From Candidatus Krumholzibacteriia bacterium (GTDB lineage Bacteria > Krumholzibacteriota > Krumholzibacteriia > JAJRXK01), in contig JBGPIA010000001.1 in assembly GCA_041484665.1 (NCBI GenBank), forward strand, positions 160,001 through 224,000: a stretch of 64,000 bases of DNA, given 5' to 3'. Each line of letters opens with the position of its first letter. Within the stretch, counting starts at the first letter, position 1. The notes under the pieces were generated by a model that made no database searches, was not told the DNA's origin, and saw only the letters and a program-made list of their open reading frames with translations. Of the stretch, positions 32,330 through 62,849 are shown piece by piece. The translations under genes and the position numbers were made by a program.

Positions 32330-33928
32330 TCAGACCGGCGCCAGATGCTCCCCGTCGACCGCAACCGCGCCCTCCCGCGCCAGCTTGGACACCACAGACT
32401 GGACGCTGAGGGCGGCGAAGCCATGCATCGAAGCCGGGACGTCGGTGTAGACCCGCGTCACGACCTCCGCAATGGTCCCGGCGCCATCGCGGATGGCGGC
32501 CAGGATCGCCGCCTCGCGCGCGCGGCGGTGGGCGAGCTGCGCCACGACGGCCGCTGCGCCTGCCGCCGCGGCCGGGCCGTGCGATGGGAACACCACCCGG
32601 GCGGGCAGCTTCGCCAGGCGCTCGAGCGACTCCATGTATTGGACCATGTCTCCGTCACGCGGGTCCACGAGGATACTGGAAAGCGTCGAGATCATGTCGC
32701 CCGCGATCAGGCTGCCGTACTCCCGCTCGAAGAAGCACAGGTGCCCGGCGGCGTGCCCTGGGGTGAAGATCGTCTCCAGCTCCCAGCCCGCGCGCCCGCT
32801 GGGCGCGCGGCCCAAGGGCAGGCGGTCGCCGTCCTGCAGCGCCCGGTCGACTGCGATGCTGCCCGCCAGCAGGTCGCGGGTCACCGGGTGGGCCCACACC
32901 GGCAGCCGCCAGCGCGCGCGCACGCGCTCGACGGCCCCGATGTGATCGGGATGATGGTGCGTCAGCACGATCGCCGCAAGGCGGCGCCCGCGGTCGCAAG
33001 CCTCCTGGAGCACGTCCTGGAGGCGGGCGCCCTCGTCGTCGTAGGGGGTGGCCGGGTCGAGCAGGTAGGCCGGATCGGAGCCGACGAGAAAGGCGTTCGT
33101 GTGGGTCGCGGGCGGAATCGTCGGCGTACGCAGCGGGATGAGCTGCACCGCCGGATTGTAGAAGATGGGATGGATGCGCCCGCGGGTGAACGCGTCGCCC
33201 ATCCGTGTCATCTCGGCCGCGGCGTCGTCCCACCCGTGCCGCTCGAGCACCTGCAGCAGCAAGAGCACAGGCGGAGCGATCAGCAGCTCGCCCGCTCGCC
33301 AGCGGGCGAGCCAACGCTGCGGCGTGTCCCAGCCTCCGTCCACCAGCTCGCCGGGCCAGATCTGTGGCTCGCCTTGGCCCGGCCGTAGCGCGCCCGATTC
33401 GCTCGACGGCTCGCCGGGCTGCTCCTGCGGCGCACGAGGACCCGCTCGTGGCCGGCCCCCACCCGGGAGGTCGTCGAGGTCGGCCTGGAAGAACTGCGTG
33501 TCGAAGCGCAACAGCGTGAAGGCAGGCGTGACCATGCGCGCCAACGGACGCAGCAGCGCGCCGTTGACCCACCCCGCGCGCTCGCACAGCGCCGCGGCGA
33601 AAACCTCCGGATCGACAATCAGGCGTCGGCGCAGGTCATCGCTCTGCACGGCTTCCAGCGGGGGCGATAGCTCCGCCAGGCAGAGCCCTGTCTCCTCCAG
33701 CGCCTCGCGCGCCACTGCGAACATGAACGCGGCCAGGTCGGGTGGGGCGCCACGCACGCTCGCCGCGTGGGCCCCGTCACTGGCGCTTAGCGTGCCCCCG
33801 GGGAAGGCCCACAGGCCGCCGAAGGCGCGCAGCGTCGGCGCGCGGTGGACCAGGTAGACGCGATCATCCTGCGCGGAGCGCCGCAGCACGAGGCCGCAGG
33901 CCGGACGGATGGAGGGGCGCGCCACCAT
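32330..33928 (-). CDS. NUDIX-like + metallo-beta-lactamase-fold fusion hydrolase
   Basis: FPGG...REALEETG; THHHPDHIG, TPGHAAGH, GD, PSHG; ATG overlaps upstream TGA (TGATG). Confidence 0.85.
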   Translation of the reverse strand: MVARPSIRPACGLVLRRSAQDDRVYLVHRAPTLRAFGGLWAFPGGTLSASDGAHAASVRGAPPDLAAFMFAVAREALEETGLCLAELSPPLEAVQSDDLRRRLIVDPEVFAAALCERAGWVNGALLRPLARMVTPAFTLLRFDTQFFQADLDDLPGGGRPRAGPRAPQEQPGEPSSESGALRPGQGEPQIWPGELVDGGWDTPQRWLARWRAGELLIAPPVLLLLQVLERHGWDDAAAEMTRMGDAFTRGRIHPIFYNPAVQLIPLRTPTIPPATHTNAFLVGSDPAYLLDPATPYDDEGARLQDVLQEACDRGRRLAAIVLTHHHPDHIGAVERVRARWRLPVWAHPVTRDLLAGSIAVDRALQDGDRLPLGRAPSGRAGWELETIFTPGHAAGHLCFFEREYGSLIAGDMISTLSSILVDPRDGDMVQYMESLERLAKLPARVVFPSHGPAAAAGAAAVVAQLAHRRAREAAILAAIRDGAGTIAEVVTRVYTDVPASMHGFAALSVQSVVSKLAREGAVAVDGEHLAPV

Positions 33929-35292
33929 CAGAACGGCACGTCGCCGCCGGTCTCCTCCTCGAGTTTCTTGCGCAGCTGCTGCGCGTGGGAGCGCAGCGCA
34001 TCCACGACCCCCGCAGGCTTGCCCAGCTGCGTGGCCAGCGCGTCGGACTGGAGCGGCGCCGCGGCCTTGGCCCAGTCGCGCCAGCGCGCGAGCGCCGTTA
34101 CCTGCGGGCAGCTGCTGGCCGCGCGGCCGAAGGCCGCCTCGGCGGCGCTGTACTTCCCGGCGGCGAAGCTGTGCAACCCCTCGTCGTAGGCCAACGCGCC
34201 CGCGAGGCTCGTCGGCATCCAGGACGCCGGATCGCCGCCGGGCGCAGCGACGCCGGCGGTCTTCCACAGCTCTGGCAGCGAGCGCGCCAGCGGCAGCAGC
34301 TCCTGTCCCTTGGCGCCGGGATCGATGGACGGTGACGCTGGCTCCCCCGCGCCCGAGCCGCTCAAGGGGATCAGCGCCAGGCGCACGTGCATGGTGCCGT
34401 CCTCGATCACGAGGAAGCTCGTTGCGAGCACCTTCTCCACGCCGCGCTTGGCCAGCGCTTTGGCCGTAATCGTGCGCGCTTGCGCATCGTCGAAGTCGGA
34501 AACGCCGCGCTTGTCGGCCGCCAGCCAGGCCAGGGTGTGGTCCGGGCCCAGGACGGTGATCCCCTTGGCGCCCTTCAGCCCCATCTCCAGCGCAACCGCC
34601 AGCGCCGATGACGCGCCACCGGCTCCCTTGTCCGACCCCTTGTCGGCGCCGCCCAGATCCGCGGGAGGCAGCATGGCCACGGTTGCCGCTCCCGCGCCGG
34701 CATCGTCATCACCGGGCTCGGCGGTCTGGGCTGCGGCGCGCAGCAACGACGCGCGCGTGCGCAGTCGCGCGGAGATTCCGGGCAACAGAACCCCCGCGCG
34801 CTCGTAGTCCTTCGCCGCTCCCTCGCCATCGCCGAGCATCTCGAGGGTCAGCGCGTGATAGCCGGCCAGGTACGGATCGTCAGCGAGCTGCGGGGCGGCG
34901 CGCTCGAGCGCCACCCGGGCATCCTTGTAGAGCCCCAGCCGCGCCTGCACGATGCCGAGGTCGCGCCAGCCAAGGGGGTCGTTGGGCTTGGAGGCCACCT
35001 TCTGGTTGAGCACATCCAGCAGGCCTGAGACCTTGTCGTCCGGCCGGGTCACCGCATCCGTCAGGAGACGCTCGGGCACCGCACCGCTCGCAGAGGACGC
35101 GGCGACAGAGGCCTTGGCCCCCACCGCCGAACTGCCCGTCGTGGCGCCGCACCCGGCAACGGTCAACGCGCAGACGGCCAGCCCGGCCGCGCAGACACCC
35201 AGGGCCAGCGCTGCGAGACCCCGCGCCACCGGCCCGCCCCGGACGACACGCCCATTCGCGCTGCACAGCCCACGGTTTCTCTCTTCGACCAT
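33928..35292 (-). CDS. TPR-containing lipoprotein with possible CsgG/FlgO-like alpha/beta domain
   Basis: Lipobox LTVAGC; TPR-like WRDLGIVQARLGLYKDARVALERA; C-terminal TPR-like helix pair. Confidence 0.6.
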   Translation of the reverse strand: MVEERNRGLCSANGRVVRGGPVARGLAALALGVCAAGLAVCALTVAGCGATTGSSAVGAKASVAASSASGAVPERLLTDAVTRPDDKVSGLLDVLNQKVASKPNDPLGWRDLGIVQARLGLYKDARVALERAAPQLADDPYLAGYHALTLEMLGDGEGAAKDYERAGVLLPGISARLRTRASLLRAAAQTAEPGDDDAGAGAATVAMLPPADLGGADKGSDKGAGGASSALAVALEMGLKGAKGITVLGPDHTLAWLAADKRGVSDFDDAQARTITAKALAKRGVEKVLATSFLVIEDGTMHVRLALIPLSGSGAGEPASPSIDPGAKGQELLPLARSLPELWKTAGVAAPGGDPASWMPTSLAGALAYDEGLHSFAAGKYSAAEAAFGRAASSCPQVTALARWRDWAKAAAPLQSDALATQLGKPAGVVDALRSHAQQLRKKLEEETGGDVPF

Positions 35293-35368
35293 GTCCCTCA
35301 CCCTCCTTTTCCACTCCACCCGCGCCGCCGGGCCGCACGCCGGCGGCTAAGCCGGCGCGCGTCAGCGG

Positions 35369-36718
35369 TCACTGATTCGCTGTCAACCCCTCCGGCTTGG
35401 GCAGCTCCATCGCCTGCGTGAGTGAGAGCCGCTCCTGCTGCTCGGCAATCGTGTTCATGGCGAACGTGGCGGGCTCGAAGTCGGGTCGCATGTCCAGGGC
35501 GAGCTGCAGCTGCTTGCGCGCGTTGCCGTAGTCCTCCTGGTCGGCGAACTCCAGCGCCTTGTGGTAGTGCTCCAGCGCCAGGACCGACTTGGCGCCTGCG
35601 CCCAGCTGCCCCACGTGCCGTGCGTTCCACTCGGTGAGCCGGCCGCCGGTGACGCACTCCGCCCACTGCACGATGGCCCGCTCGACGACCTTCATCACGT
35701 CAGCGCCCTTCCCCTCCGCCGTCGAGCCGCAGAGGTACTCGCCCGTCTCCACCGTGAACATGCTGATGCCGACCTTCACGCGGTCCTTCGCGTCGCGCAC
35801 GATCGAGCCTTCGATGAAGCCCTGGACGGCCGCGACGTTGCCGGCGCGGACCAGGCTCCCCTGGTCAAGCAGCTTCGCGTTGATCACGGCGTCGGACTTC
35901 AATCCGTTCTGCATGGCGATCTCGCGCATCAGCAGCTCGCGGCGGGTGTACGGCACCACCCGAACCGGCCGGGGCGCAGCGCCCGGGGTCTTCGCCGCTC
36001 CCTTGTCGGCCTTGAGCGTCCTGGAGTTGAGGTTCTCCTCCAGGAGCGACGTGACCAGCGTGGGCAGCGCAGTGGCCAGCGTGCCCAGGTCGAAGTCCTT
36101 GCGCGAGAGGTCGACCACATCGAAGTCAAGCAGCGCCAGGTTGTAGAGCCCGGGGCTGCCGCCCAAGAAACCGAAGGAGCGGTAGGCATCGAAGATGGGC
36201 TGGCGCCAGCTGGCGGGATAGGTGTCCAGCGACTTGGGCCGCCAGGCCGCGTCGTTGCGCAGCACCTCCTGGTAGCACTGCTGCGCGCTGCTGAAGTTCT
36301 TGGCGATCGAATAGAGCTCGGCCATGAGCTCGAGGCTCTCGATGCGCCCGCCCACGCTCATCTCGGCGCGGTGGTTCTCCCAGAGGGCCTTCACGCAGGA
36401 GAAGGATTCGGTGAGCTTGCCGGCGGCGCGCAGGTCGCGGCAGTTCTGCCGCTCGATGCCGAAGGTGTCCACGCCCTTGGCGTCCTCGCCAACCGCGGCG
36501 GAGGCAGCCGCCGGTGGCGTCCCGGCAGTCGCCTGCGTGCCGGGAGCGGTGGGCGTCCCGGCGGCCGGAGGCGTAGCGGTCGGCTTGGCCGTCGTGCCCG
36601 GGGGTGGCGTGCCGGCGGACGGCGGCGGCGTCCCCGCCTGCGACGCGGCAGCCGCCAGCTGCGCGCCGGGGGCCAGGACGATCAGGCCCAGCGCCAGGTA
36701 GTAGAGCGAGCGCTTCAT
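35369..36718 (-). CDS. Exported TPR + CsgG/FlgO-like protein with Pro/Ala/Thr linker
   Basis: Signal peptide; LALLDFD...RRELLMREIAMQNG...AVQGFIEGSI...MFTVETGE; terminal TPR-like HYHKALE...LDMRPDF. Confidence 0.65.
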   Translation of the reverse strand: MKRSLYYLALGLIVLAPGAQLAAAASQAGTPPPSAGTPPPGTTAKPTATPPAAGTPTAPGTQATAGTPPAAASAAVGEDAKGVDTFGIERQNCRDLRAAGKLTESFSCVKALWENHRAEMSVGGRIESLELMAELYSIAKNFSSAQQCYQEVLRNDAAWRPKSLDTYPASWRQPIFDAYRSFGFLGGSPGLYNLALLDFDVVDLSRKDFDLGTLATALPTLVTSLLEENLNSRTLKADKGAAKTPGAAPRPVRVVPYTRRELLMREIAMQNGLKSDAVINAKLLDQGSLVRAGNVAAVQGFIEGSIVRDAKDRVKVGISMFTVETGEYLCGSTAEGKGADVMKVVERAIVQWAECVTGGRLTEWNARHVGQLGAGAKSVLALEHYHKALEFADQEDYGNARKQLQLALDMRPDFEPATFAMNTIAEQQERLSLTQAMELPKPEGLTANQ

Positions 36719-36771
36719 GGTTGGGTCTCCTTCCACAGCGGGGACTGCACGCGCACAGGGGTGGCGAGCGC

Positions 36772-38370
36772 CTAGGACCCCAGGTCGACCTCGATCTCCT
36801 CTCCGTCCGTCTGGACCTCGAGGGGGATGAGCTTGGGTGCGAGCAGCCCTCCCTTGGCGCGGATGGTATGCCGGCCCGGCGTGAGACGCACCTTCCAGAT
36901 CATGGGGTCCGGCCCCGGGCTGTAGCTATCCTTGTCGTCGACCACCAGCTCCCTCACGTTGCCGTAGGGGTGGCCGCCCTTGCGGAAGCGCAGCACCGCC
37001 TGCACGAGCTTGGGTCCAACGATCTCGATGCGGCGCAGCAGGGGCTGGAGGTCCGCGCGTCCGACGGCGGTCAGGCGCAGGACGAAGGGCCCCGGCGAGA
37101 GCCCAGCCGTCGACCACCGCGCGCCCCCCGTCGAAGCGCCTCCGCTGAAAACGCGCGTCCAGGTCGCGCTGCCCGCGTCGGGCGCGCCCTCGATCAGCAT
37201 GTTGCCGTCGACTCCGGCAGTGCCCCAGCGAACCTCGAGCATGTCGCCCGCGGGCACCTGCTGTCCAGCGCCCGGGGACTCCCACCACAGGCCGCCCTCG
37301 ACCTTGAGCGCCCCCGCCAGGCGCGACACCTCGCCTCCCGCGCTGCCCGTCACCACCAGGTTCCAGGCGCCCGCCGAGACGAGGCCGGCCGCGACCGAGA
37401 GCTCGAGCGCGTCGGCGGACTTCGAGACGATCTTGCAGCTGACGCTCTCCCGGCCGTGCTCCAGCGAAGCCGCGATGGCACGGTCGAGGTGGCTCCCGCT
37501 GACGCGCAGGCGGCCGTCCCAGCCGGCGCTAGCGACCACGCGCGCCGGCTCGACGGCCTTGGGCTGCGGTGGCGGCTGGAAGGTCTCGACCTTCTCCTGC
37601 ACCTGCCGGACGTGGGGATCGGTGCCGGTACTCACGAACCACCGCAGCGGAAAGTCGACGCTGCCGCGCAGCGCGTCAAAGGAGCGCACCAGCTCCAGAT
37701 GATACTCCTGCTCGCCGCGTTTCATCCGGAACAGCAGGTCGTCGATCTGGATCGGGACTACGTAGACCGCAGGCTCGCCCTCTTTGGCCGTCACGCCCGG
37801 CTCCAACGCCCCGTGCAACCCCTCGACCGGGTCGTCGTGCTGGTTCTTAACGGCGACGAAGGTCGTGACCTTCTGGCTGAGGAACTCGCTCGCCCGATCG
37901 TTGAGCAGCACCTGGCGCAGCTTGCCCCTCTCGAAGGTGGCCTTGCTCAGCTCGAGAGTGAGGCGGTCCGGGTCGGAGCCCGGGTAGCGCAGGACGCCCA
38001 CGACGCGCTCGGCCTCGATCTCGCCACGGCGCTGGCTGCCCTTGACCGTGAGCTTGGCCGTACGGGCGCGAGCGGGTGGGAGCGGCTGCGGTGTCACGAG
38101 CTCGCCGGTCTTCTGCAGCCTGAGCGCGTACTCCATGTCCTCCAGCAGCTCGTTGCTGTCCACGAGCAGTGCGCTGCCCTGGCCGGTAAGGTCCGGATCG
38201 CCCTCGACCTCCACCTCGAAGCTGAACGGCGCCATGATCTGCCAGATGCGGAACGCCCCCAGCGCTCCCACCAGCACGGTGATGAGGAGCACGGGCAGGC
38301 GCATCCGGGCCCACGGGCCGCGCGGACGCCGCGGCGGCAGGGCAGCGGAGGAGGGCGCGGACTCAGGCAT
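36772..38370 (-). CDS. Membrane-anchored beta-rich protein with Ig-like and C-terminal PEGA-like domains
   Basis: TM LPVLLITVLVGALGAF; C-terminal LTPGRHTIRAKGG...LEVQ...EVDLG; start uncertain. Confidence 0.6.
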   Translation of the reverse strand: MPESAPSSAALPPRRPRGPWARMRLPVLLITVLVGALGAFRIWQIMAPFSFEVEVEGDPDLTGQGSALLVDSNELLEDMEYALRLQKTGELVTPQPLPPARARTAKLTVKGSQRRGEIEAERVVGVLRYPGSDPDRLTLELSKATFERGKLRQVLLNDRASEFLSQKVTTFVAVKNQHDDPVEGLHGALEPGVTAKEGEPAVYVVPIQIDDLLFRMKRGEQEYHLELVRSFDALRGSVDFPLRWFVSTGTDPHVRQVQEKVETFQPPPQPKAVEPARVVASAGWDGRLRVSGSHLDRAIAASLEHGRESVSCKIVSKSADALELSVAAGLVSAGAWNLVVTGSAGGEVSRLAGALKVEGGLWWESPGAGQQVPAGDMLEVRWGTAGVDGNMLIEGAPDAGSATWTRVFSGGASTGGARWSTAGLSPGPFVLRLTAVGRADLQPLLRRIEIVGPKLVQAVLRFRKGGHPYGNVRELVVDDKDSYSPGPDPMIWKVRLTPGRHTIRAKGGLLAPKLIPLEVQTDGEEIEVDLGS

Positions 38371-38389
38371 GATGGGGCGCGCCGAGGCG

Positions 38390-38974
38390 CTACTTGCAGC
38401 CCGCTGGATCGACCAGGACCTGCGCGTCCTTGCCAACCTTGGGGAAGAGCCGGTCCTGCGTGCCGATGCATGGCTCACCGCCGTGGATCAGGAACAGGGT
38501 GAGCACCTTTACGATGATGTTGCGCCCCTTGCCCTTCATCTGTACGGGGGAGTTCAGCTCGATCGGCGCGCCATCGGCGCCCACGGTCGATTCGAACAAG
38601 AGCGACAGCTTGCCGGCCTTGCCAGCGAAGCCATTGCCCTTGGCGTCGGTCACCTTGACCACGACGGGCGTGCCTTCCTTCAGTGCCACACAGCCCGAGA
38701 GGACCTTGTTGCGCGCGATCTCCCCCTGCAGCACCGCGCCCTTTTTTACGCTCCCGCTGCAGAACGGCGTCGGGAAGCGCACCTCCAGACTGTCTCCCTG
38801 GGCCAGCATGAGCTGCGTGTACTGGGCCCCGCCCGCTGCGGAGCCGGGCGCCGCAGCGCCGGCCGGGGTGGATGCCGCCCCGAGCGCGGCCGCCCACAGC
38901 AGGGCAATCAACGCAATCGCCGTGCCCGCTGCGGAGCCGGCCGAGCTGCCCTTCGCTTCGCGATTCGTTCGCAC
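38390..38974 (-). CDS. Small exported protein resembling a TrbI/VirB10 beta-barrel domain
   Basis: AGGAGG RBS, signal peptide; GDSLEVRF...LKEGTPVVVKVT...GKLSLLFES...DG pattern; hydrophobic hairpin IIVKVLTLFLI. Confidence 0.55.
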   Translation of the reverse strand: MRTNREAKGSSAGSAAGTAIALIALLWAAALGAASTPAGAAAPGSAAGGAQYTQLMLAQGDSLEVRFPTPFCSGSVKKGAVLQGEIARNKVLSGCVALKEGTPVVVKVTDAKGNGFAGKAGKLSLLFESTVGADGAPIELNSPVQMKGKGRNIIVKVLTLFLIHGGEPCIGTQDRLFPKVGKDAQVLVDPAGCK

Positions 38975-39106
38975 CGTCGAACACCTCCTGCACCGGAATG
39001 TCAGCCGCCCGCCCGCTCGCCCGGGCCGGCACGCTTGGGCCGTCACGCTCGGGCCGCTACGCTCAGTCCCACACGCCCGGGCCGGCGCGTTCGCGCCCGC
39101 GGGGCG

Positions 39107-42100
39107 TCATGGCAGCTCGGGGAGGGCGGCAGCGAGCTCCGTCCACCACCGGGGTTTGAATTCGAACTGCAGCGTCGCCACGTCGCTGCCGCCCGACGAC
39201 GGCGGCGGCAGGGCGGCCGAGGACGCGGCGATCTGCCGGGCCGTCTCGGGCGCGACGCGCGCCGTGAGCGTGCCCAAGAGCGACGTGGCTACGTGGCCAT
39301 CCCTGGGCGGGTCCACATAGAGGTGGAACCAGACCATCCCCTTATTCTCCTCGCGGCCCTGGATCAACAGCCGGTCCTGCGGCCCCACGGCCAGCGTGCC
39401 GCCGGCGTCCACGCGGGCCGTCGCGAAGCCGGTCCCGGGCGCCGCGAGCATCGGCGGCGCGAGCACCGAGATCAGCTCGGTGGCTGAGCCACCCGCGACG
39501 CGGCTCACGGTGATGCGCGGCCGGGCAACCTGTCGGCGCGTGCCCGAGTAGTCGGCGACCGAAAGCAGATGGACTTCGATCTGCTGGAGCGGGATCGGGA
39601 AGGGGCGCCCAAACGCCGCCACCAGCTCGCGGGCGGCAGCAACCCGCGCCTTCTCGCGTGGGTCACCCTCCAGCTGCCCCAGGTCGATCGCGGAGAGTTG
39701 GCGCACCAGAGCCGCCACGTTATTGAGCGCCGCCGCGCAGGTGGCGTCGCTCGCGCCACGCAGCTGGCCCACCGCCCCGCGCAGCTTCCCGTACACGTCG
39801 CGGAAGACGGCCTGGTGGCTCTGCGCCTGGTGCTGGTTGCGGGCCAGCCACGCGCTGCAGAGATCCCCGTAGAAGCCCTGGCCCAGCGCGCCGCGCGCGC
39901 CCTGCATCGCGGCGGCCACCGCCGGCGGCGCGGGGGACGGAGCGGCCTCGATCTGGCCCAGCACATCGATCATGCGCGCCAGCGCCTCCTGACTGGGCGC
40001 CGGCAGCGCCGCATCGCCCAGACGCGCGTAGACGCTCTTCGCCGCGCCGGTCTGCGGACCGCCGATCGCGCGCCATGCCTCCAGCTTCCAACGCGCGACA
40101 TGTGCGGCATAGTCGGCGACGGTGCAGGGGCTGGCCGCCGCGTTCGCCGGGCACAGCGCCACCGCTGCCGCAAGCAGCGCCTCGCCCTTGCCGGCCGCTC
40201 CGCCTGCCACCGCGCGCGCCGCCGCGTAGAACGCGTCCGCCTGCGCCAGCCGGCCGGGCACGGGCCGTCCGCCGTCGCGCAGGCGCGCCGCAGCGGCCTG
40301 CGCTTTCTTCACTCGCTCGGCCAGGTCGCCCTCGCTCAATGCAGCCGCACGATAGGGCACGGCCAGGGCCAGCGCGGAGAGCCCCGCGCGCTGCTCGGCG
40401 TCCATCAGGTCGCTGGCGGCGGCGGCGCCCTCGGCGATCTGGGCCAGCGTGGCCGGCGCGGCACAGCGCTCGGGGAACCCATCGGCGGCGGCCAGTAGTG
40501 CGCGAGCCGCCCGGGTGAACCCATCGCCCCCGCGCGTAGCAGCCAGCTTGCCCGCTGCGTCGGCGGCGCGCTGCAGAGCGTGCGCGCGGGCGACCGCCGT
40601 GCCCGTCACCGGATCGTTCTCCTTGCCCTCGGCCGAGGGCACGTGCAGCCTGCGCTCCTGCGCGTTGTAGGCCGCACGCAGCTGATCCAATGAGCCGGCG
40701 CTGAGCAGCTTCTGCAGCCCCTGCAGGCGGACCACCGACTCCGCGGCAGTCTGCGCTGCCTCCTGCAGGCTGGCCGCCACGGCCTTGAGGCTCTCGTCGC
40801 CGCGCGCCGACTTCGCGGCCTTCACCAGCTGCTCCTCGAGCGCGGGACACTCGGTGTCCAGCGCCGCGCTCGCGCGCTCGCCCAACGTTGTCAGCGCCGA
40901 CTTCATGGCCTCGGTGAGATCGAAATCGCGCGCGCCTTGGGCCAGCATCTGGGAGAGGATACCCTCGTGCTCGTCGACGAGCTGCGCAAGCGTCTTCGCG
41001 CTGGCGCGCCGCAGGCGCTCGCCGGACTGTACGTTCCCCGACTCCTGGCGGGCCGAGCGCGACAGCAGCACGCCCACGAGCGCGCCGGTGACCAGCACCG
41101 AGACGGCCACGATCACCAGGCCGCTGCGCGAGCGCCGCGAGCGACGAGACGAAGGTGGCAACGGCGGCGCCGGGGGTGGGACGCCGGCGGGCCGGTGCTG
41201 GAAGGGAAGCGCCGCGGCGCCGACACCCTCACCGGCGCCTTCGCGCAGCACGCCGCCGGCGGGATGCGGCGCCGCGGCGCCGGCCGCCGCGGTCGCCGCC
41301 GCCAGCGAGCCGACCTCGCTGCGACGCACCAGGCCCGTCGCGTGCGCCCAGTCCCGACGCTCCAGCGCCGCGAACAGATCGTTGACGTATCCAGTGGCGT
41401 CCGGCGGCAGCTGCGGCGGGCGCATGTCCTGCACCATCTGCAACGAGCGGCGGAAACTCGCCTCGTCCTGGCGCATGGCGGCCACTGCGAAGTTCTCGGC
41501 GTTGCGGTAGGCGAAGGTGGCCAGGCTCAGCCAGCGCCGCCGTGCGACCGGCGCCAGCTCCATCAGCTGCCCGAACACCTCCTCGGCCGCCGGGCTGTCG
41601 CTGGCCGAGGGCAGATGCAGGCGTCCCTCGGACAAGAGCCGCGTTAGCATCGCCCGCAGCATCGGGTACCGCTCGGGGAAGATCGCCCGCAGATCCTCGG
41701 CGCCGGTGGGATCCGACGGGAACTCCATGGGCGGGAAGGGCGTCTCAGGCGTCCACGCCTTCAGCAGCTCGCAGCGGCGACCGAGATGGAAGGGGTTGAA
41801 GTCGAGGGCGGCGTACATCTCCGCAGGAATGCGCACGATGTGGCGCAGCAACGCCCCGGGCCGCCCGCCGGCGTCGCGCCCCTGGTAGGTGATCTGGATG
41901 ACGGCGTAGTGCGATGGGTTGCCCGGCGGCGGGTCCTGATTCCACAGCGGAACCTGTACCAGCGCCCGTGTGAAGTCGGCCCCGGGCTCGTACTCGCCCC
42001 ACTGGTTGCAGATCTGCTCGTGCTGCTCGATGGCAGCCGCGTCCAGCCCAGGAGTGACAGCATGGGTGTGATGGCCGGGCTTGAGCCCGGGCAGGGCAAG

Positions 42101-42133: not shown

Positions 42134-42179
42134 GCGACCGCCAGTGCTTCGCGGCGCGCGACGGCGCGGCTGCCGGGAG

Positions 42180-44624: not shown

Positions 44625-44627
44625 GGC

Positions 44628-47207: not shown

Positions 47208-47540
47208 CGCTGCTCTCCTCCGCTTCCCCGAGCAGGCACACGCAGACAGCACCCTTGCCGTTGCGGGTGGAACCGAGCCACGCCCCTGCCGGACAGTTTC
47301 GCCATGCAGGCGCCGGATTCAACAGATTTCCGAGCTCGCCCTCTTCTGTACACCCGCCTCGAGCGGGCGTCCACACCTGAGCCGCTGGAGCTTGCCAGCG
47401 GCCGAAACAAAGGTTGCCTCGCCCGGTCGGCGGTCGGACAATTGAGCGCAGAAGTGCCCGGGGTCCGCCACGATACCAGCTGGATGCGGCGGTGGGTCCT
47501 CCGCGGCCGCCCTCCCGGAACCGTCGAAGGAGATTCCGCC

Positions 47541-54862: not shown

Positions 54863-55255
54863 TCACGCCTCCAAGTCGTAATCCAACGTCAGGAGTTGAC
54901 GCGTGGCCCGCACCGTGGCGACCACTCGGATGCGGCGGTAGGGGAAGTAGCGCCCCGGATCCTTGCCCGTGAATTCGATCTTGTCCACCACGATGCGCGG
55001 CTCGCAACGGCCCAGCGCATTGCGGATCTCGCGCACGACGTCCTGGGCCCGCCCCTGACGGAACTCGTGGTGCGGCAGGTCGGCCCCGAAGTCGGGATCG
55101 CCCGCTGTGCCCGGCGGTTTGGCAGCACCCTGCACCGGGTTGGTGAGGACCAGCCGGATGGTGTGGGCGATGGAGTCCTCCAGCGAGCCGGAGGCCATGC
55201 GGCCGCCTTCCAGGCGCAACGGGAGCACGAGGTAGGGTGCGCGTTCGTCCGGCAT
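54863..55255 (-). CDS. tssE: T6SS baseplate TssE (gp25 family)
   Basis: YLVLPL, SIAHTIRLVLT, DPDFG, IRNALGRCEPRI. Confidence 0.85.
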   Translation of the reverse strand: MPDERAPYLVLPLRLEGGRMASGSLEDSIAHTIRLVLTNPVQGAAKPPGTAGDPDFGADLPHHEFRQGRAQDVVREIRNALGRCEPRIVVDKIEFTGKDPGRYFPYRRIRVVATVRATRQLLTLDYDLEA

Positions 55256-55256
55256 C

Positions 55257-57083
55257 TCAGTTGAGCTTGACCATGGCGCCCTTGACCGAGACCTCCGAGC
55301 CGCCCTGGACCTCCACCTTCATCTTACCGCCCACCTTGGTGTTCATGCCGGAGACCTCCACGTCCGCGTTGGACTGTATGAGGATCTTGCCCTTGGCCTT
55401 CAGGTTGAGCTCGCCCTCGGCCTCCAGGCTGATGTTCTTCTTCGACTTGATGGAGATGTCCTCGTCGGCCTGCACCGTGACTTTTTTCTTCGCCGTGACG
55501 TTGACGTCGCCCTCGGTGGCGATCTCGATCTTGGCCTTGGGGTCGCTCTTGTCGTGTACCAGCGTGATGCGGTTCTTCTTGTCGGGCGTGGTGATCTCGA
55601 TCTTCTCCTCGTCCTTCGTATCGCGGAAGAGGATCTGGTGGCCGCTCTTGGTGAGCAGCACCTTCGCCTCGTTCTTGTCGTAGTCATTCTCGGCGGCCTT
55701 GACGGGCGCCATCTCCGCCGGTCCCCTGCCGTTGTACAGGCTTCCGATCACCACTGGCTGCATCAGATCACCGCCCACGAACGCCACTACCACCTCGTCA
55801 TCGACCTCGGGCAGGAAGTACATGCCCCAGCTCCTGCCGGCGTGGGGCATGGCCACGCGCGCCCAGTTGCTGTCCTGGTCGCCGCTGTCCCCGAGCAGAT
55901 GATGGTACCTGACCTTCACACGTCCGCGCTTCTCGGGGTCCCTGTTGTCGGTGACCACGCCGGCGAACACGTTCGGCTGTTGCGGCCGCTGGAGTGTGCG
56001 CTGCGGATGGGCGATGTCGGTCGGGACGCAGGTGAAGCGATTGCGGTAGCCGCGGCCGTCGCCCTGCAGGGTGTGGCGTACCCGCGTGACGTAGTACTTC
56101 CCCTTCTGGTCTGCGCTCACCCCCGAGATCGTGAGCTCGGTCCCCGGGTCGAGGCCGAGATCGTCGCTCTCCCCCATCCCGACCACCAGGCCGGCGAGCC
56201 AGCCCTCGCGCAGGTGCTGCAACTCTCGGTCGAGCTCGCCGAGATCGCTGGGCGGAAGCGACGGGAGTAGGTGCCCCAGCTTGTTGAAGCTCTGCTGGCT
56301 GCGGTCCTTCGCCTTCACGGCATAGGGATGGCTGGCGCTGTCCGGCGGCTTCGTCTCGCCGAACAGCGGCTTGTGGCTCTTGGCGTCCCAGCCCCGAGCG
56401 GCGAACTTGCCAGGCGCCATGCGCAGCTTCACGCTGAAACGGTGCAGCGCCGCCTCGGTCTCCTCGCCACCCATGGAGAGCTTGGAGCTGCCCGCCTGGA
56501 GGTTCGCCGCGACCTTCAGCTTCTGCCCGTCATACCACGCCCACAGCCCCTCCAGCTGGCACATGCGCCGCAAGAAATCGTAGTCGGTCTCGCCGTGCTG
56601 GAGGACGTATTCGTGCTTGGTCGTGGTGGTCGCGCTGACCTCGCAGAACGCTCCATAGGAAGACGCCAACTGCTTGAGCGCATCCGCGGTGGTCATCTGC
56701 AGCCAGCGGATGTTGCGCGGCACGCCGTCCATCAGGATGGTCTGGGAGGCGCCCCGCAGCGTCACGGAGTAGGCGCCCGTGAGCAGACGCTGGTGGCGCA
56801 CTTCGGTGACGATGCCCTTGAACTTGATGCCCTGCTCCGCGGTCTTGCCCTGCCAGGCGGCCTCGATCTCCAGCGGCTGGCCCAGTGCGTCGTAGAGGCC
56901 ATCGAGCGGCTCGCTGCCGCCGCCCACCAGGTCGCCGGCGTCGGCGGCCAGGCTCAAGCACTCCACGCTGAAGGTGTGGTGCCCCCACAGTGGCTGGTCG
57001 AGGACGATGCTGCCGCAGCGGATCTTCTTGCTGGCGAGGTCGGTCCCCGACAGCTTCACGGACACCTTGGTGGCGAACGCCAT
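55257..57083 (-). CDS. vgrG: T6SS spike VgrG (gp27 + gp5 OB-fold + beta-helix), no effector extension
   Basis: YVLQHGETDYDFLRR, VTDNRDPEKRGRVKV, FLPEVDDEVVVAFVGGD, TKSGHQI, ends VKGAMVKLN. Confidence 0.92.
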   Translation of the reverse strand: MAFATKVSVKLSGTDLASKKIRCGSIVLDQPLWGHHTFSVECLSLAADAGDLVGGGSEPLDGLYDALGQPLEIEAAWQGKTAEQGIKFKGIVTEVRHQRLLTGAYSVTLRGASQTILMDGVPRNIRWLQMTTADALKQLASSYGAFCEVSATTTTKHEYVLQHGETDYDFLRRMCQLEGLWAWYDGQKLKVAANLQAGSSKLSMGGEETEAALHRFSVKLRMAPGKFAARGWDAKSHKPLFGETKPPDSASHPYAVKAKDRSQQSFNKLGHLLPSLPPSDLGELDRELQHLREGWLAGLVVGMGESDDLGLDPGTELTISGVSADQKGKYYVTRVRHTLQGDGRGYRNRFTCVPTDIAHPQRTLQRPQQPNVFAGVVTDNRDPEKRGRVKVRYHHLLGDSGDQDSNWARVAMPHAGRSWGMYFLPEVDDEVVVAFVGGDLMQPVVIGSLYNGRGPAEMAPVKAAENDYDKNEAKVLLTKSGHQILFRDTKDEEKIEITTPDKKNRITLVHDKSDPKAKIEIATEGDVNVTAKKKVTVQADEDISIKSKKNISLEAEGELNLKAKGKILIQSNADVEVSGMNTKVGGKMKVEVQGGSEVSVKGAMVKLN

Positions 57084-57174: not shown

Positions 57175-57606
57175 CTACATCAGCTCGGCGCCCCACGTGC
57201 TGTTGGGATCGCCCCACTGCACGCCATTGATCGTCAAGGATGGCGCGGAGACGAAGAAGATCTCGGTCTGCGGCGCCTCGCGGGCCTGGTTGACGTGGGG
57301 AACGACCTCCTCGTAGCTCTCGATGAACCCGTTCTTCCACTCCAGGGTCTTGAGGACCTTGTTCTCCTTGCGGGGATCGAGGAACTCGATCTTGCCCGCC
57401 TTGAAGTACTCCTGGTGGGGCTTGATGGCCCAGGTCCAGTAGTCGGTGGCCTCATCGGAGCGGCGGGTGATCTTGATGGAGGCCAGGCGCGGCCGGCTGT
57501 CCACCGGGGCGCCGTTGGTGTCCTTGCCGACGTCGAGTCCGTACTCCACGTCCAGCACGTTGGGGACGGCATTGCCGTCGATCGAAACACGGAACTGCTT
57601 GGCCAT
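57175..57606 (-). CDS. tssD: T6SS tube protein TssD/Hcp (Bacteroidota-type), copy 2
   Basis: VLDVEYG...DTNGAP...GKIEF...LKTLEWKNGFIESYEE. Confidence 0.8.
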   Translation of the reverse strand: MAKQFRVSIDGNAVPNVLDVEYGLDVGKDTNGAPVDSRPRLASIKITRRSDEATDYWTWAIKPHQEYFKAGKIEFLDPRKENKVLKTLEWKNGFIESYEEVVPHVNQAREAPQTEIFFVSAPSLTINGVQWGDPNSTWGAELM

Positions 57607-57724: not shown

Positions 57725-58120
57725 CTACTTGTTCTTCCAGTCGAAATTGTGCTCCTCGCCCTCGACGCTGATGATCTCGGGCTCGATGATGAACATCTCC
57801 TCCACGTGGTCCCCCGTGTCGGAGTACTCCACGCTGTACTGGCGGACGTACGCCTTCTTGAACTCCAGCGCCTTCATCTTGAGACCATTGGCGTCCACGA
57901 ACGTGATCTTGCCGGCCTTGCGGTTGGCATCGTTGGCGTCGGCCGCCCACTCGGCGATGTCCACCACCTCGTCGGCCACGCGCCGTACGAGGATGCCGTC
58001 GCACAGCACCTGACGGGTCGGGGCGCCGTCGCGGTCCTTGGCGGCCCGCACGCCGTAGCGCACCTCCAGGATGTTCTTCATCTCGTTTCCGTCGATCTCG
58101 ACCTTGGGTTGCCGGGCCAT
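57725..58120 (-). CDS. tssD: T6SS tube protein TssD/Hcp (Bacteroidota-type), copy 1
   Basis: ILEVRYG...DRDGAP...GKITF...MKALEFKKAYVRQYSVEY; AGGAGG RBS. Confidence 0.8.
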   Translation of the reverse strand: MARQPKVEIDGNEMKNILEVRYGVRAAKDRDGAPTRQVLCDGILVRRVADEVVDIAEWAADANDANRKAGKITFVDANGLKMKALEFKKAYVRQYSVEYSDTGDHVEEMFIIEPEIISVEGEEHNFDWKNK

Positions 58121-58188
58121 CACTCCTCCTTACATTTGGGCTTGCCCCGGCCTCACTGGACGAGCGGCCTCGTCCACAGGGACCGATC

Positions 58189-59628
58189 TCACGCGGACGC
58201 GACCGAGACGTCGTTGTTGCCGGCCGGATCCTCCTTCACCAGCACATTGAAGGAGTGGACCGACTGTTTGAAACCGAGCTTGAGCTGCACGTCCACCTCG
58301 TGGCGAGCGCGCTGCTCCGGCGTCGCGCGCACCTCGACCTCGGCCGAGTCGAGCGGTTTGGTGTCGCCGACGCACTCGTTGAGGAACTTGCGCAGGTCCT
58401 TCTGGATGGCGGCCAGCGTCTGGTTCGTGATGTTCTTGAACGCCTGCTTGTTGAGGTAGTGGCAGACGTTCTTCACGATCCAGTCCTCGGTGCGGATGCG
58501 GGAGTAGGTGTCCAGCCCCTCCTTGGCGGAGAGGTTCCAGTCGCCCAGCACGCGCACCTTGCCGTCCCAAAAGGCCGTGGGGATGATCCCCAGCTGCTTC
58601 ATCTTGGCCACCTTGTCACGGTCCAGGCGGAAGCGGTCCTTCTGCGGGCCCTGGATGCCGCCCTTCACGTACCCCGCGGCCGACTCGTGGGTTCCCATGG
58701 TGTCGTCGCAGGAGTAGATCAGGCCGGCCAGGTGGGCCGAGGGCGAGACGTAGAGGTCATCGTCCTCGAACTCGTGGCGAGCCCGCCCCATCAGATGGTT
58801 GCCCACCAGCGAGACGTACTGGCGCTCGGGAGTGCTCCCCTTGAGCCCCTCGTAGCCGGTCTCCATCACATCCACCATCGAGTCGTAAGTCTCGTAGTCC
58901 TCCACGTCGGCGAAGACCTGCACCTTGTACATCTCCCCCAGCTTGCCCAGGCGCTCCACTTCCTGGATGCCGCCCGGCCAGTTGGGGACGACCATGGTGG
59001 AATAGACGTTCTTGAGGCTGAAGAACTTGTACTCGCTGCGCAAGGTGTCGGCCAGCGAGTCGAACACCGTACGATCGTCGGAGTCCATGAGCTGCTCGGC
59101 CGTGGCGTTGAAGAACCAGGCGTCGACCGCCTTGCCCGGCTCGGTCTGCGCGTTCGAGAAGAAGCCGTCGATGGCCCGGTAGGCCTTCTCGATGGGCCGG
59201 ACCTGCTCGAAGACGCTGCGCAGGTTCTCGTTGAGCAGCTCGGTGAGCTGCTCCACGCGCTCGCCGGCCTTCTCCTGCACCTCGTCGAGGTCCTCACCGG
59301 CCTCGATGGCCTTGATCCAGGCCGCCAGGCGCTGCTGCAGCAGCTTACGCGGCTGCTCCCAGGTGCTCTTCTCGAGGAAGTCCTTGTACTGCGACTTCTT
59401 CGCGGGGTCCACCAGGCTGAGCGCCGGCAGGTTCACGCCGTCGGACACCGCCTTGGGCATCATCTTGCCCAGCCAGGTCATGGCCTTCTTGGCGTCACCC
59501 AGCCCCAGGCCCGACAACGATGCGGAGTACTCTTCGGCCGTTTGCGCCTCCCCGGCGGGAACTGCGGGCTCGGCGTGGACGGGCTCGGGAGCCTGGGGTT
59601 GCTGTTGCTGGTTCAGCTCATCGGTCAT
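58189..59628 (-). CDS. tssC: T6SS sheath large subunit TssC (DUF5458-like, T6SS-iii type)
   Basis: RPIEKAYRAIDGFFSN, YSTMVVP, NHLMGR, LYVSPSAHLAG, YSRIRTEDWI, YLNKQAF. Confidence 0.88.
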   Translation of the reverse strand: MTDELNQQQQPQAPEPVHAEPAVPAGEAQTAEEYSASLSGLGLGDAKKAMTWLGKMMPKAVSDGVNLPALSLVDPAKKSQYKDFLEKSTWEQPRKLLQQRLAAWIKAIEAGEDLDEVQEKAGERVEQLTELLNENLRSVFEQVRPIEKAYRAIDGFFSNAQTEPGKAVDAWFFNATAEQLMDSDDRTVFDSLADTLRSEYKFFSLKNVYSTMVVPNWPGGIQEVERLGKLGEMYKVQVFADVEDYETYDSMVDVMETGYEGLKGSTPERQYVSLVGNHLMGRARHEFEDDDLYVSPSAHLAGLIYSCDDTMGTHESAAGYVKGGIQGPQKDRFRLDRDKVAKMKQLGIIPTAFWDGKVRVLGDWNLSAKEGLDTYSRIRTEDWIVKNVCHYLNKQAFKNITNQTLAAIQKDLRKFLNECVGDTKPLDSAEVEVRATPEQRARHEVDVQLKLGFKQSVHSFNVLVKEDPAGNNDVSVASA

Positions 59629-59642
59629 GTTCGCGCGCCTCC

Positions 59643-60092
59643 CTATGCCTCGCCGCCGAGAGCGGACAACGTGGCCTTGAAACCGTTGAGCAGCTGCTCG
59701 CGCTGCTTGGGATCGCTGAGGGCCTTGCGCAAGGTCGCGTTGGTTTTCATGGCCTTGAGGAACTCGGCCAGGATCAGCTTCTCGTTCTTCACGGCCGTGA
59801 GTCGCTCGCTCTGGGCCACCACTGAGTCGACGCTGAAGTCCTTGATGGCGTTGAAGCGGAACTCCGACGACTCGGTCTCACCCTGGTCGTTCTTCACCTC
59901 CGCCTCCACCCGCGGCTGGTAGGTCCCGAAGACGTCAACGATCGACTTGCATTGGGTCAGGGTCGGCTCGGCCCCAGCGTTCTCGTTGAGCGGAGCCACG
60001 AACACCGTGCGGTTGCTATCGAGGATCTCGACTGCCATCGATTGGTCGATCTCCTTGATGTGGTCCGCGAACATATGCTTCAGCTTCGCCAT
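59643..60092 (-). CDS. tssB: T6SS sheath small subunit TssB (T6SS-iii type)
   Basis: 149 aa; NRTVFVAPL, VFGTYQPRVEAE, FNAIKDF, QSERL, KTNATLRKAL; true start at 60092, not 61256. Confidence 0.85.
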   Translation of the reverse strand: MAKLKHMFADHIKEIDQSMAVEILDSNRTVFVAPLNENAGAEPTLTQCKSIVDVFGTYQPRVEAEVKNDQGETESSEFRFNAIKDFSVDSVVAQSERLTAVKNEKLILAEFLKAMKTNATLRKALSDPKQREQLLNGFKATLSALGGEA

Positions 60093-60401
60093 CGTTCCCA
60101 CATCCTCCGGGATCTGAGGGGAAGGACGCCGCGAGGGCAGCGGCGTCCGGGCGTTCGCAGGCATCATACCACCGGGCGAAAAGGACCGCCTAGGAACAAA
60201 AGTCGTTGTCCGCGCGGCGGTTGCCCAATGGCATCGCCAAGGGAACAGACTGCGGAACCCGGCAGCCGCGCCGGGGGGACCGGTGCCGGATCGCCAGAAT
60301 TTGCGACAAGCGCGCGGGGGGAGCCGAGTCTTTGACAGCGTCTCGCGAGCGCACCTAAAATCCGACCGTCCCGCACCGACCCCGCACAGGAGGCCGCCCC
60401 C

Positions 60402-62849
60402 ATGAGCACCCGCCGCTGGAAGCCCGAGGTCACCGAGGCCCTCACGCGCGCGTCCCAGATCGCCAAGGAGCGCGGGCACGCCACGGTCGGTCCGCTGCAC
60501 CTCTTCTACGCGTTGCTGGTACCCGATGCAGGTGGGGCCGCGCTGATCCTGCGCTCCATGGGGCGCGAGGTGGCGCACGTGCGCGATCGCCTCGACGCCG
60601 CGCTGGACGCCGTGGAAAAACCGCCGCGCCCGGTCTACGAGCCCAAGCCCGACAAGGCCTTCCAGGCGGCGATCGACCTGGCCGAGACCGAGCGCAAGGT
60701 GCTCGAGGAGGAGGAGCTCAACGAGGGACACCTGCTGATCGCGTTGACCAGCGTCGACGGCGGGCTGGACAGGGAGCTGCGCAAGGAGCTGGGGATCAAG
60801 CGCGGACAGATCGTCGACGCGCTGCGCGATGTGGGGAAGGCCAAGGCGCTCGCTTCCGCCGGCGGCCCGCCGGAAGCCGCGCTCACCGGCAGCATGATGC
60901 AGTTCTGCACCGACCTGACCGGCGAGGCGCGCAGCGGCGAGCTCGATCCCGTCATCGGCCGCGAGCGCGAGACCGCCCAGTTGGTGGAGGTGCTGGGGCG
61001 CCGGCGCAAGAACAACGCCGTGCTGGTGGGCGAGCCCGGCGTGGGGAAAACGGCCATCGTCGAGGGGCTGGCCATGGCCATCGCCAAGGGGCACGTGCCC
61101 AGCGTGCTGGCCAATACGCGGGTGCTGGTGCTGGATCTGGCGGCGATGGTGGCCGGCGCCAAGTACAAGGGCGAGTTCGAGGAGCGCTTCAAGAAGCTGA
61201 TCAAGGAGCTCGAGGGCACCGCCGGCCAGGGCCTGCTGTTCGTCGACGAGCTGCACACGTTGCTGAGCGCGGGCGGCGGCGGCGGCGGCATGGACGCGGC
61301 CAACCTGCTCAAGCCCGCGCTTGCCCGCGGGACGCTGCGCATGATCGGGGCTACGACCATCGGAGAGTACCGTAAGTACATCGAGAAGGACGCGGCCTTC
61401 GCCCGCCGCTTCGTGCGCATCGACGTCGCCGAGCCTGACGAGCCCATCTGCTTACGAATCCTCAAGGGCGTGCGCCCCAAGTATGAGGAGCACCACAAGG
61501 TCAAGATCGCCGACGACGCGCTGGAGGCTGCGGTGACCCTCTCCAAGCGCTACCTGCCCGACCGCTTCCTGCCCGATAAGGCCGTGGATCTGCTGGATGA
61601 GTGCGCATCCAACATGAAGATCTTCACCGAGCGGCTGGCGATGTTGCGCGAGCGCGGCAAGGAGATCGACGATCTGAAGGACGATGACGCGTCGGCGCCC
61701 GCGCTGGAGAACTGGGCCGGGGTGCTCGAGACCCTTGCCGACGGGCTCAAGGCCCGCGGCCTGGAGGCCGCCTTCGACCTGGGCGACCGGGGTAAGGCGG
61801 CGCTGGCCGGTGCGCGCGGCGCCGTGCTCGACGCCGCGGCGAACGTCCCGTCCCATGTTGACTCGGGCCAGGTCGGCGCACGCGTCAGCCTGCGCACCGG
61901 CATCCCCGTCAGCAAGATGATGGGCAAGGAGCGCGAGCGCCTGGCCAACATCGAGCAGTACCTGCACGAGCGGCTGATTGGGCAGCACGACGCGGTGCGC
62001 TCGGTCGCCAATGCGGTGCGCAAGGGGCGCGCCGGGCTCAAGCGCCCCAACCTCCCGGTGGGCAGTTTCCTGTTCCTGGGGCCTACCGGCACGGGCAAGA
62101 CCGAGTTGGCCAAGACCCTGGCGGAGTTCCTGTTCGCGGACGAGAAGGCGATGATCCGCTTCGACATGAGCGAGTTCCAGCAGGAGCACACCGTGCAGCG
62201 CATGATCGGCGCCCCTCCCGGCTACGTCGGCTACGAGGAGGGCGGCCAGCTTACCGAGGCCGTGCGCCGCAAGCCGTACTGCGTGCTGCTCTTCGACGAG
62301 ATCGAGAAGGCCAACAAGCGCGTCTTCGACATCTTCCTGCAAGTGCTCGACGACGGCCGGCTGACCGACGGCCAGAGCCGTACGGTGGACTTCTCCAACA
62401 CCGTGGTGATCATGACCAGCAACATGGGCGGTCTTTGGATCGCGGAGCAAGACACCGCAGGCAAGCCCATCGACCCCACGTACCTTCGGAACATGCTCAT
62501 CGACGAGGGGCGCGGGCTGCGGCCGGAGTTCGTGAACCGCTTCGACGAGTTCGTGATCTTCCACAGCCTCAAGCACGAGGAGGTCCGCCAGATCCTCGAG
62601 CTGCAGCTGAAGGGGCTGCGCAAGATGCTCAAGGCGCAGGGGCTCTCGCTTTCGGTCAGCGATCCTGCCATGACGAAGCTGGCGCAGTGGAGCTACGACC
62701 CGGCGATGGGCGCCCGCCCGGTGCGCCGCACGATCGACCAACGCATCATCAATCCGCTGTCCGAGAAGATCGTCAGCGCCCCCGAGACAGCGGGCAAGAC
62801 CGTCCAGGTCGATGTGGCGGGCGACGAGCTCGCGATCTCGGTCGTCTAA
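60402..62849 (+). CDS. tssH: ClpV/TssH AAA+ ATPase
   Basis: Clp N-domain, GEPGVGKT and GPTGTGKT Walker A motifs, short middle linker, divergent from tssB. Confidence 0.8.
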   Translation: MSTRRWKPEVTEALTRASQIAKERGHATVGPLHLFYALLVPDAGGAALILRSMGREVAHVRDRLDAALDAVEKPPRPVYEPKPDKAFQAAIDLAETERKVLEEEELNEGHLLIALTSVDGGLDRELRKELGIKRGQIVDALRDVGKAKALASAGGPPEAALTGSMMQFCTDLTGEARSGELDPVIGRERETAQLVEVLGRRRKNNAVLVGEPGVGKTAIVEGLAMAIAKGHVPSVLANTRVLVLDLAAMVAGAKYKGEFEERFKKLIKELEGTAGQGLLFVDELHTLLSAGGGGGGMDAANLLKPALARGTLRMIGATTIGEYRKYIEKDAAFARRFVRIDVAEPDEPICLRILKGVRPKYEEHHKVKIADDALEAAVTLSKRYLPDRFLPDKAVDLLDECASNMKIFTERLAMLRERGKEIDDLKDDDASAPALENWAGVLETLADGLKARGLEAAFDLGDRGKAALAGARGAVLDAAANVPSHVDSGQVGARVSLRTGIPVSKMMGKERERLANIEQYLHERLIGQHDAVRSVANAVRKGRAGLKRPNLPVGSFLFLGPTGTGKTELAKTLAEFLFADEKAMIRFDMSEFQQEHTVQRMIGAPPGYVGYEEGGQLTEAVRRKPYCVLLFDEIEKANKRVFDIFLQVLDDGRLTDGQSRTVDFSNTVVIMTSNMGGLWIAEQDTAGKPIDPTYLRNMLIDEGRGLRPEFVNRFDEFVIFHSLKHEEVRQILELQLKGLRKMLKAQGLSLSVSDPAMTKLAQWSYDPAMGARPVRRTIDQRIINPLSEKIVSAPETAGKTVQVDVAGDELAISVV

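Follow-up and report, generated by a model that had tools for sequence, protein, structure and literature searches.

How is a contractile injection machine held in the cell envelope when neither of the known membrane complexes can be recognized beside it? The question is raised by a type VI secretion system (T6SS) locus in a 64,000-nucleotide stretch of a Candidatus Krumholzibacteriia genome (contig JBGPIA010000001.1, G000:C1:160001-224000), referred to here as the window; the genome has a size of 5.45 Mb and is 93.65% complete. Profile scans, which covered 21-22 window proteins, identify a full T6SS tail and baseplate at the locus. The reading we favor, as reasonably likely, is that of a membrane-docked contractile T6SS belonging to a lineage sister to the T6SS-iii of Bacteroidota and equipped with its own membrane complex. 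A third kind of anchor is probably formed by a conserved pair of membrane proteins that includes a Ras-like GTPase.

TssC, TssD, and TssK of the window fall to type-iii families (PF17541, PF17642, and a type-iii TssK hidden Markov model (HMM), respectively), a type-i TssK HMM gave zero match to the window TssK, and 10 of 10 plasmid matches of the window TssC belong to Bacteroidota. The TssK is approximately 100 residues longer than that of Bacteroides finegoldii. A clpV homolog immediately precedes tssB in relatives and, apart from two tssD copies and a tssG fragment on contig C6, the T6SS genes are single-copy in the genome. An earlier note on this DNA had proposed a tssB-tssC-tssD-tssD-vgrG-tssE-tssF-tssG array with a divergent ClpV and a tssK, a tail of Bacteroidota type, and a host outside the Bacteroidota. 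Every gene stands where it was placed (by profile match, ClpV by synteny), the type-iii families bear out the second proposal, and the same-class relatives, which are labeled Krumholzibacteriota, bear out the third.

One study recorded T6SS-iii in 443 genomes, all of them Bacteroidota, whereas more than 20,000 further genomes had none (PMC10781749, Bongiovanni et al. 2024), and type iii, one of four T6SS subtypes, is described as confined to Bacteroidota (PMC13584744). TssC trees (quick IQ-TREE runs with thin sampling and a root on a distant outgroup, supported by the Shimodaira–Hasegawa-like approximate likelihood ratio test, SH-aLRT, with no bootstrap) unite Krumholzibacteriota and Zixibacteria sequences in one group, with values of 83 for 26 rows and 92 for 18 rows; the smaller tree leaves out the long branch of genome G167 and seven more rows. 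This group is sister to, and outside, five Bacteroidota TssC sequences (SH-aLRT 98-99), and both groups are split from two type-i sequences at 100. The proposed TssC phylogeny therefore places the window on the type-iii side with Bacteroidota, as a separate sister group. Within it Krumholzibacteriota and Zixibacteria sequences interleave, which suggests transfer between the phyla.

Neither known membrane complex accompanies this tail in detectable form. Pfam profiles for TssN (PF17555), TssO (PF17561), and TssR (PF17643) each matched none of four genomes (G000, G377, G232, and G463), and a Capnocytophaga plasmid serving as positive control was matched each time (TssN at 2e-94). TssN also matched none of five genomes in an earlier search without a responding control, giving eight distinct genomes tested in all. 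The DotU and IcmF_N profiles each matched none of five own-phylum genomes, and TssJ (PF12790) none of five genomes; the Escherichia coli controls were matched. Small local HMMs for TssN, O, R, L, M, J, and TagF found no match in the window genome, nor did a three-sequence TssA HMM run without positive control, while TssQ was covered solely via five proteins annotated as TssO, with no profile of its own. Thirteen envelope profiles compared with five single B. finegoldii T6SS-iii membrane-complex proteins reached at most 0.64% in hhalign. The earlier impression that neither TssJLM nor TssNOPQR is present accordingly agrees with the TssN/O/R and TssJ/L/M profiles, which give no confident match in the genome.

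Two genes behind tssK, encoding a protein termed here the anchor and a membrane protein of the DO-GTPase family, are instead linked to the tail. In the own-phylum set (208 genomes, all of one class), type-iii TssC occurs in 22 genomes and the anchor in 21, all inside those 22, with no anchor in the 186 genomes lacking TssC. The GTPase gene directly follows the anchor gene in 21/21 genomes. DO-GTPase2 is found above cut-off in 19/208, all anchor-positive, and eight more genomes give weak matches below cut-off. Among 285 genomes of a second phylum, Zixibacteria (that of G208), a list comparison found the anchor in 145 and TssC in 145, with both in 143, anchor only in two, and TssC only in two. 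Nine of the 10 Zixibacteria loci opened read clpV-tssB-C-D-vgrG-(E)-F-G-K-anchor-GTPase, and a gene for a small exported protein lies close behind in eight. The tenth lineage has an operon that stops after the anchor, with the GTPase gene elsewhere in 5/5 genomes; at both GTPase loci opened there (2/2), the small gene and a PAAR gene, read by eye, adjoin it. The expected joint occurrence of a tssK-anchor-GTPase-GAP1 block with T6SS genes thus holds across two phyla for tssK, anchor, and GTPase, and for GAP1 in some lineages only.

The single TssC-positive, anchor-negative own-phylum genome, G167, carries a very divergent island (G167:C28:71000-84000, L022). It is of low GC content, with very divergent clpV, tssB, tssC, and vgrG and a PAAR-like gene, several of them apparently broken. 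It has no anchor match and could represent a further variant or a locus in decay.

Hydropathy and an AlphaFold model (pLDDT 86, alignment of 32 sequences, helices throughout) predict for the anchor a helical N-terminal domain, one membrane helix near residues 278-297, and a short tail. Foldseek with this model gave nothing under E 0.001, a wide structure search gave generic helical matches up to Z 7.9, and an atlas search gave no usable match. A profile search of 1.84 billion representatives gathered 45 anchor relatives with no drift to any named family; two distant homologs, from two of 10 clusters looked up, bear Eisenbacteria names. The GTPase protein is modeled (pLDDT 83, pTM 0.46) with a GTPase domain at approximately 38-310, a membrane helix at approximately 327-345, a helical region to 698, and a β domain at 700-795. 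Its GTPase domain is Ras-like (Rag-like, Z 15.7; YcjX, Z 15.1, in the wide structure search), the P-loop and TKxD motifs are kept in the alignment, and a large exported region is present in every full-length copy aligned. This fold and the DO-GTPase2 match (1e-7) uphold the GTPase label given earlier. With the full protein, Foldseek returned only GTPase and membrane-remodeling folds, and the exported part was barely covered by the wide search. PDB sequence searches with both the anchor and GTPase profiles returned chance-level rows only. A second DO-GTPase-family open reading frame (ORF; 816 aa frame) was seen at G010:C93:3011-3595 (L073), on a different contig from the T6SS locus of G010.

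The small exported protein is the third core candidate. Strong matches (E < 1e-40) come from 19 own-phylum genomes, of which 18 carry the anchor, and weaker ones from 22 further genomes. The label VirB10-like, once attached to it, survives as a mere lead (atlas 0.79 to a TrbI cluster). The GAP1-N2 protein, by contrast, is lineage-limited. Its label is confirmed by PF20013 (3.9e-9), and its gene stands behind the GTPase gene in the window, in the closest relative (G020), and in 4/10 Zixibacteria loci, where Pfam matches are weak (5e-4, 9e-5, none). In 10 own-phylum loci the small gene directly follows the GTPase gene, with no GAP1-N2 there. GAP1-M, GAP1-C, and FNIII domains were absent among 21 window proteins (Pfam, E 0.1). 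Homology of GAP1-N2 to TagF was considered and is rejected on present data (0.1% against three TagF sequences in hhalign, small alignments).

The region from 33928 to 52067 holds eleven envelope-type genes, in keeping with the earlier count of about 11, but only three of them, those for anchor, GTPase, and small protein, make up the conserved core. A single obligate machine of eleven is rejected: GAP1-N2 is lineage-limited, and TPR2, TPR3, and BB1 (Table 1) belong to a kinase-TPR/CsgG-TPR/CsgG-barrel-LamG operon that T6SS-free genomes carry too and that is a separable module. This operon adjoins the T6SS in most own-phylum loci and in 4/10 Zixibacteria loci, is intact away from the T6SS in G283 and G232, and was not found in G463, BB1 included. 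BB1 orthologs occur in 20/21 anchor-positive and 16/187 anchor-negative genomes. A self-standing operon of Ser/Thr kinase-PEGA, two TPR/CsgG, barrel, and LamG lipoprotein genes, seen at L141 and L142 and in 16 T6SS-negative genomes, recurs in these phyla whether or not a T6SS is present.

In the mechanism proposed here, the anchor, the GTPase protein, and the small exported protein would together do the job of TssL and TssM. In both known subtypes the position following tssK is occupied by the gene for the baseplate connector (PMC10781749). TssK may dock onto the helical domain that the anchor, a single-pass protein, exposes in the cytoplasm, and the anchor would then stand in for TssL or TssN. 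The DO-GTPase protein, with a cytoplasmic GTPase and approximately 470 exported residues as a periplasmic scaffold, would correspond to TssM, and its nucleotide cycle could gate assembly or the recruitment of the baseplate. The small exported protein would complete the outer end, GAP1-N2 might tune the GTPase in some lineages, and the often linked kinase-to-LamG module may contribute a pore in the outer membrane or act as a trigger.

Comparison with known systems delimits the proposal. With T6SS-iii, as in the B. finegoldii locus (L059), the window shares the TssC, TssD, and TssK families, the TssB-C-D order, a connector gene beside tssK, and the lack of a TssA match. It differs in occurring in other phyla, in its sister TssC, and in having the anchor, DO-GTPase, and small protein where no TssN/O/R is detected. 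With the TssJ-TssL-TssM of T6SS-i/ii it shares a tssK-L-M-like order and a first protein with a single C-terminal membrane helix, and with TssM a cytoplasmic P-loop domain, a membrane helix, an exported region ending in a β domain, and a partial NTPase profile match. However, there is no DotU, IcmF_N, or TssJ Pfam match, no N-terminal membrane hairpin is predicted, the exported region is shorter than that of TssM and without profile match, and the GTPase sides with DO-GTPases. T6SS-iv and extracellular contractile injection systems share the contractile phage-like tail; unlike these, the window has a two-piece TssBC sheath, a ClpV-like ATPase, TssK, and dedicated membrane proteins. DO-GTPase and GAP1-N2 proteins are known from ternary conflict systems (Kaur et al. 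2020, PMC7159879), with which the window has in common a DO-GTPase gene followed by a GAP1-N2 gene (PF19993 and PF20013 above cut-off) and membrane association. In contrast to those systems it has a single GTPase, which carries an exported region fused to it, an optional GAP1, and a T6SS setting; the terms T6SS, TssM, IcmF, and TagF are absent from the text of that paper.

The closest competitor holds that anchor and GTPase are true, very divergent TssL and TssM, so that a type-iii tail would sit on a type-i-like membrane core; the function would be as in our reading and the descent would differ. The order tssK-anchor-GTPase is that of tssK-tssL-tssM in reference loci, the single-helix topology of both proteins matches TssL and TssM, and the GTPase domain aligns with six TssM cytoplasmic domains at 88-90% in hhalign (E 1.5e-6 to 3e-6, 129 columns). 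The same domain is far closer to five conflict-system DO-GTPases (99.6%, 1e-24), which themselves match the TssM cytoplasmic NTPase domain at 96% (E 4e-9, small alignments), a link not found stated in the literature searched. DO-GTPases match TssM at least as well, so the TssM likeness of the window protein is family-wide. At the level of the sequence family the likeness is real, without making the GTPase a TssM ortholog, and the exported parts do not match (0.1% against the TssM periplasmic part). The anchor model meets Francisella DotU (4acl) at Z 6.7 (rmsd 3.7, 129/155 residues, rank 10 of 48,161 chains), which is within noise for helical models, nine unrelated chains scoring above; the anchor profile reaches 1.9% against five TssL, the small protein 0.4% against two TssJ, and GAP1 the 0.1% against TagF given above. 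No TssL or TssM is among the Foldseek matches listed for either model. We regard this descent as unlikely, while it tempers the earlier proposal of a T6SS-iii injector on a different trans-envelope machine: the type-iii tail, the lack of detectable TssN/O/R or TssJ/L/M, and the conserved linkage speak for it, but the machine is perhaps not unrelated to TssL/TssM, given the NTPase match, gene order, and predicted topology, and the docking is deduced. Very unlikely, in our judgment, is that the pair is an inner-membrane tether and regulator co-opted from a DO-GTPase/GAP1 conflict system, with the TPR/CsgG-barrel operon as the channel or no channel needed. DO-GTPase and GAP1-N2 are indeed a described regulatory pair (PMC7159879), TPR2 and TPR3 have CsgG-like domains, and the operon has the distribution given above, adjoining many loci and, in G283 and G232, lying intact elsewhere. 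Yet 10 own-phylum loci have no GAP1 behind the GTPase, the operon occurs without T6SS, BB1 was not found in G463, and every full-length GTPase copy aligned keeps its large exported region. Hardly credible is a plain T6SS-iii with TssNOPQR proteins that have diverged beyond detection or are encoded in sequence that the assembly lacks. The incomplete genome would allow it, TssO/Q/R are often missed in Bacteroidota (PMC10781749), and a two-sequence TssP HMM gave one generic PKD match (4e-4), off-locus on another contig. TssN is near-ubiquitous, with several helices and a β-grasp domain (PMC10781749), and its counterpart is lacking. None lies between tssG and tssK, the gene behind tssK encodes a helical protein with one membrane helix, unlike TssN in fold and topology, TssN matched 0/8 genomes, and the 13 envelope profiles peaked at 0.64%.

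Several points weigh against a membrane-docked T6SS with its own complex, the reading preferred here. Docking and secretion are read from the genes, and the predicted topology comes from hydropathy together with two AlphaFold models (pTM 0.68 and 0.46). Because many of the genomes are kin, the counts of co-occurrence exceed the number of independent events, and anchor and GTPase genes are not adjacent in the G463 lineage. Weak homologs of the small protein exist in approximately 20 T6SS-negative genomes, no convincing outer-membrane component is universal (BB1 being not found in G463 and present in 16/187 anchor-negative genomes), and TssO/Q/R that have diverged strongly can escape profile searches, a limitation stated in the Bacteroidota study (PMC10781749). 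Against the possibility that the accessory genes would lack conserved linkage in relatives, anchor and GTPase are linked with tssK in two phyla. From its sequence the system is plausibly a new T6SS subtype: it departs from T6SS-iii in its membrane complex, and membership of T6SS-i is not established.

Table 1. Genes of the T6SS locus and its surroundings in the window
Feature	Position	Strand	Basis
Anchor, core of proposed membrane complex	44628..45650	-	Structure model, hydropathy, co-occurrence
DO-GTPase-family membrane protein, core	42180..44624	-	PF19993 (DO-GTPase2) 1e-7
Small exported protein, core candidate	38390..39046	-	Mature family of ~170 aa, conserved beside GTPase
GAP1-N2 protein, lineage-limited GTPase partner	39107..42133	-	PF20013 3.9e-9; membrane helix near residue 339
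ClpV/TssH-like AAA+ ATPase, divergent Clp	60402..62849	+	Clp families below cut-off; assigned by synteny
tssB, sheath small subunit	59643..60101	-	PF05591 (T6SS_VipA) 1.7e-7
tssC, sheath large subunit, type-iii family	58189..59628	-	PF17541 3.4e-62
tssD/Hcp tube 1, type iii	57725..58123	-	PF17642 2.6e-17
tssD/Hcp tube 2, type iii	57175..57606	-	PF17642 2.1e-11
vgrG spike	55257..57083	-	PF04717, PF05954, TIGR01646
tssE	54863..55255	-	PF04965 1.2e-8
tssF	53099..54850	-	PF05947 2.5e-6
tssG	52132..53310	-	PF06996 1.8e-18; real start probably downstream of ORF start
tssK, type-iii-like	45738..47252	-	TIGR03353 3e-9; type-iii TssK HMM 5e-17
Membrane-anchored protein, no known family	36772..38478	-	No profile match; no ortholog in fetched loci
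TPR2, TPR + CsgG-like, exported, accessory operon	35369..36736	-	blastp 2e-8 to relatives
TPR1, TPR3 paralog	33928..35319	-	TPR Pfams; hhalign 92% to TPR3
TPR3, TPR + CsgG-like, probable lipoprotein	47601..48950 (start approximate)	+	TPR Pfams
BB1, probable outer-membrane β-barrel, accessory operon	48947..50119	+	PF13557 1e-5 in 1/3 relatives
BB2, exported, possible barrel	50116..51063	+	No useful Pfam match; 46% in G020 only
Exported probable lipoprotein	51060..52067	+	No Pfam match; 25% match in G020 only

The labels given earlier to the remaining envelope genes fared unevenly. TPR is borne out by Pfam matches, and CsgG-like holds solely through orthologs: relatives of TPR2 match PF03783 (CsgG) at approximately 1e-13 in 3/3 cases, and those of TPR3 match CsgG at 2e-4 to 0.015 in three relatives. 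A β-barrel is weakly favored for BB1 and not for BB2. The PEGA-like label finds no Pfam match and reaches 1% in hhalign, and the suggestion that the gene at 36772 is the outer half of the kinase-PEGA protein of relatives is not supported.

Elsewhere in the genome, the sole PAAR match is an orphan (G000:C3:289560-291461; L135:9561-11324, minus strand) with a C-terminal peptidoglycan-binding domain and a PP2C phosphatase two genes away, and PAAR-like genes adjoin clpV in relatives. Judged from sequence, these are cargo candidates, which would fit antibacterial use. A possible cargo cluster was also noted 11 kb beyond the window (G000:C1:235298-241572, L136), with three genes of 1066, 456, and 576 aa that match no Pfam family apart from a peptidoglycan-binding domain in the middle one. 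The tssG fragment on C6 (G000:C6:164421-165302, L028) is 57% identical to the window tssG and isolated, without other T6SS genes, in a lower-GC regulatory region. In 9/10 Zixibacteria loci (L109, L111, L116, L117, L120, L121, L124, L125, and L127-L128) clpV is divided between two neighboring ORFs: Clp_N and the first AAA domain are encoded by one, the second AAA domain by the other. This division is so regular that sequencing error is excluded as its cause. At the left border (window 32330-33930), a fusion of NUDIX and metallo-β-lactamase folds, read by eye, is followed by an aminopeptidase P-like gene.

No description of such a T6SS in Zixibacteria, Krumholzibacteriota, Eisenbacteria, or Latescibacteria was found in a literature search that covered few subscription papers, and the supplements of PMC7159879 and PMC10781749 could list such loci; Krumholzibacteriota and Zixibacteria are unnamed in the available part of PMC12210884. 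It is tempting to speculate, though we hold it unlikely as a whole, that this is a fifth T6SS subtype carried by approximately half of Zixibacteria species, that anchor and GTPase share ancestors with TssL and TssM, that the arrangement is the ancestral type-iii state before replacement by TssNOPQR, that the TssM NTPase is tied to DO-GTPase/GAP1 systems, and that a working GTP switch controls assembly.

The T6SS lineage itself is real and widespread in uncultured bacteria; its docking at the membrane is deduced from its genes. Krumholzibacteriota, Zixibacteria, and probably Eisenbacteria carry a sister lineage of the type-iii tail, together with a third set of membrane proteins that includes a TssM-related GTPase, and so provide a natural outgroup. 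The T6SS-iii membrane complex has been taken as independent of TssJLM, and the three scenarios offered for the origin of the two complexes (PMC10781749) thereby become testable. Three small single-copy proteins are named whose structures would reveal how a baseplate is re-docked, and a role is suggested for one branch of DO-GTPases. By implication, an injector of this kind, which the present subtype models would not call complete, exists in many uncultured bacteria of sediments.

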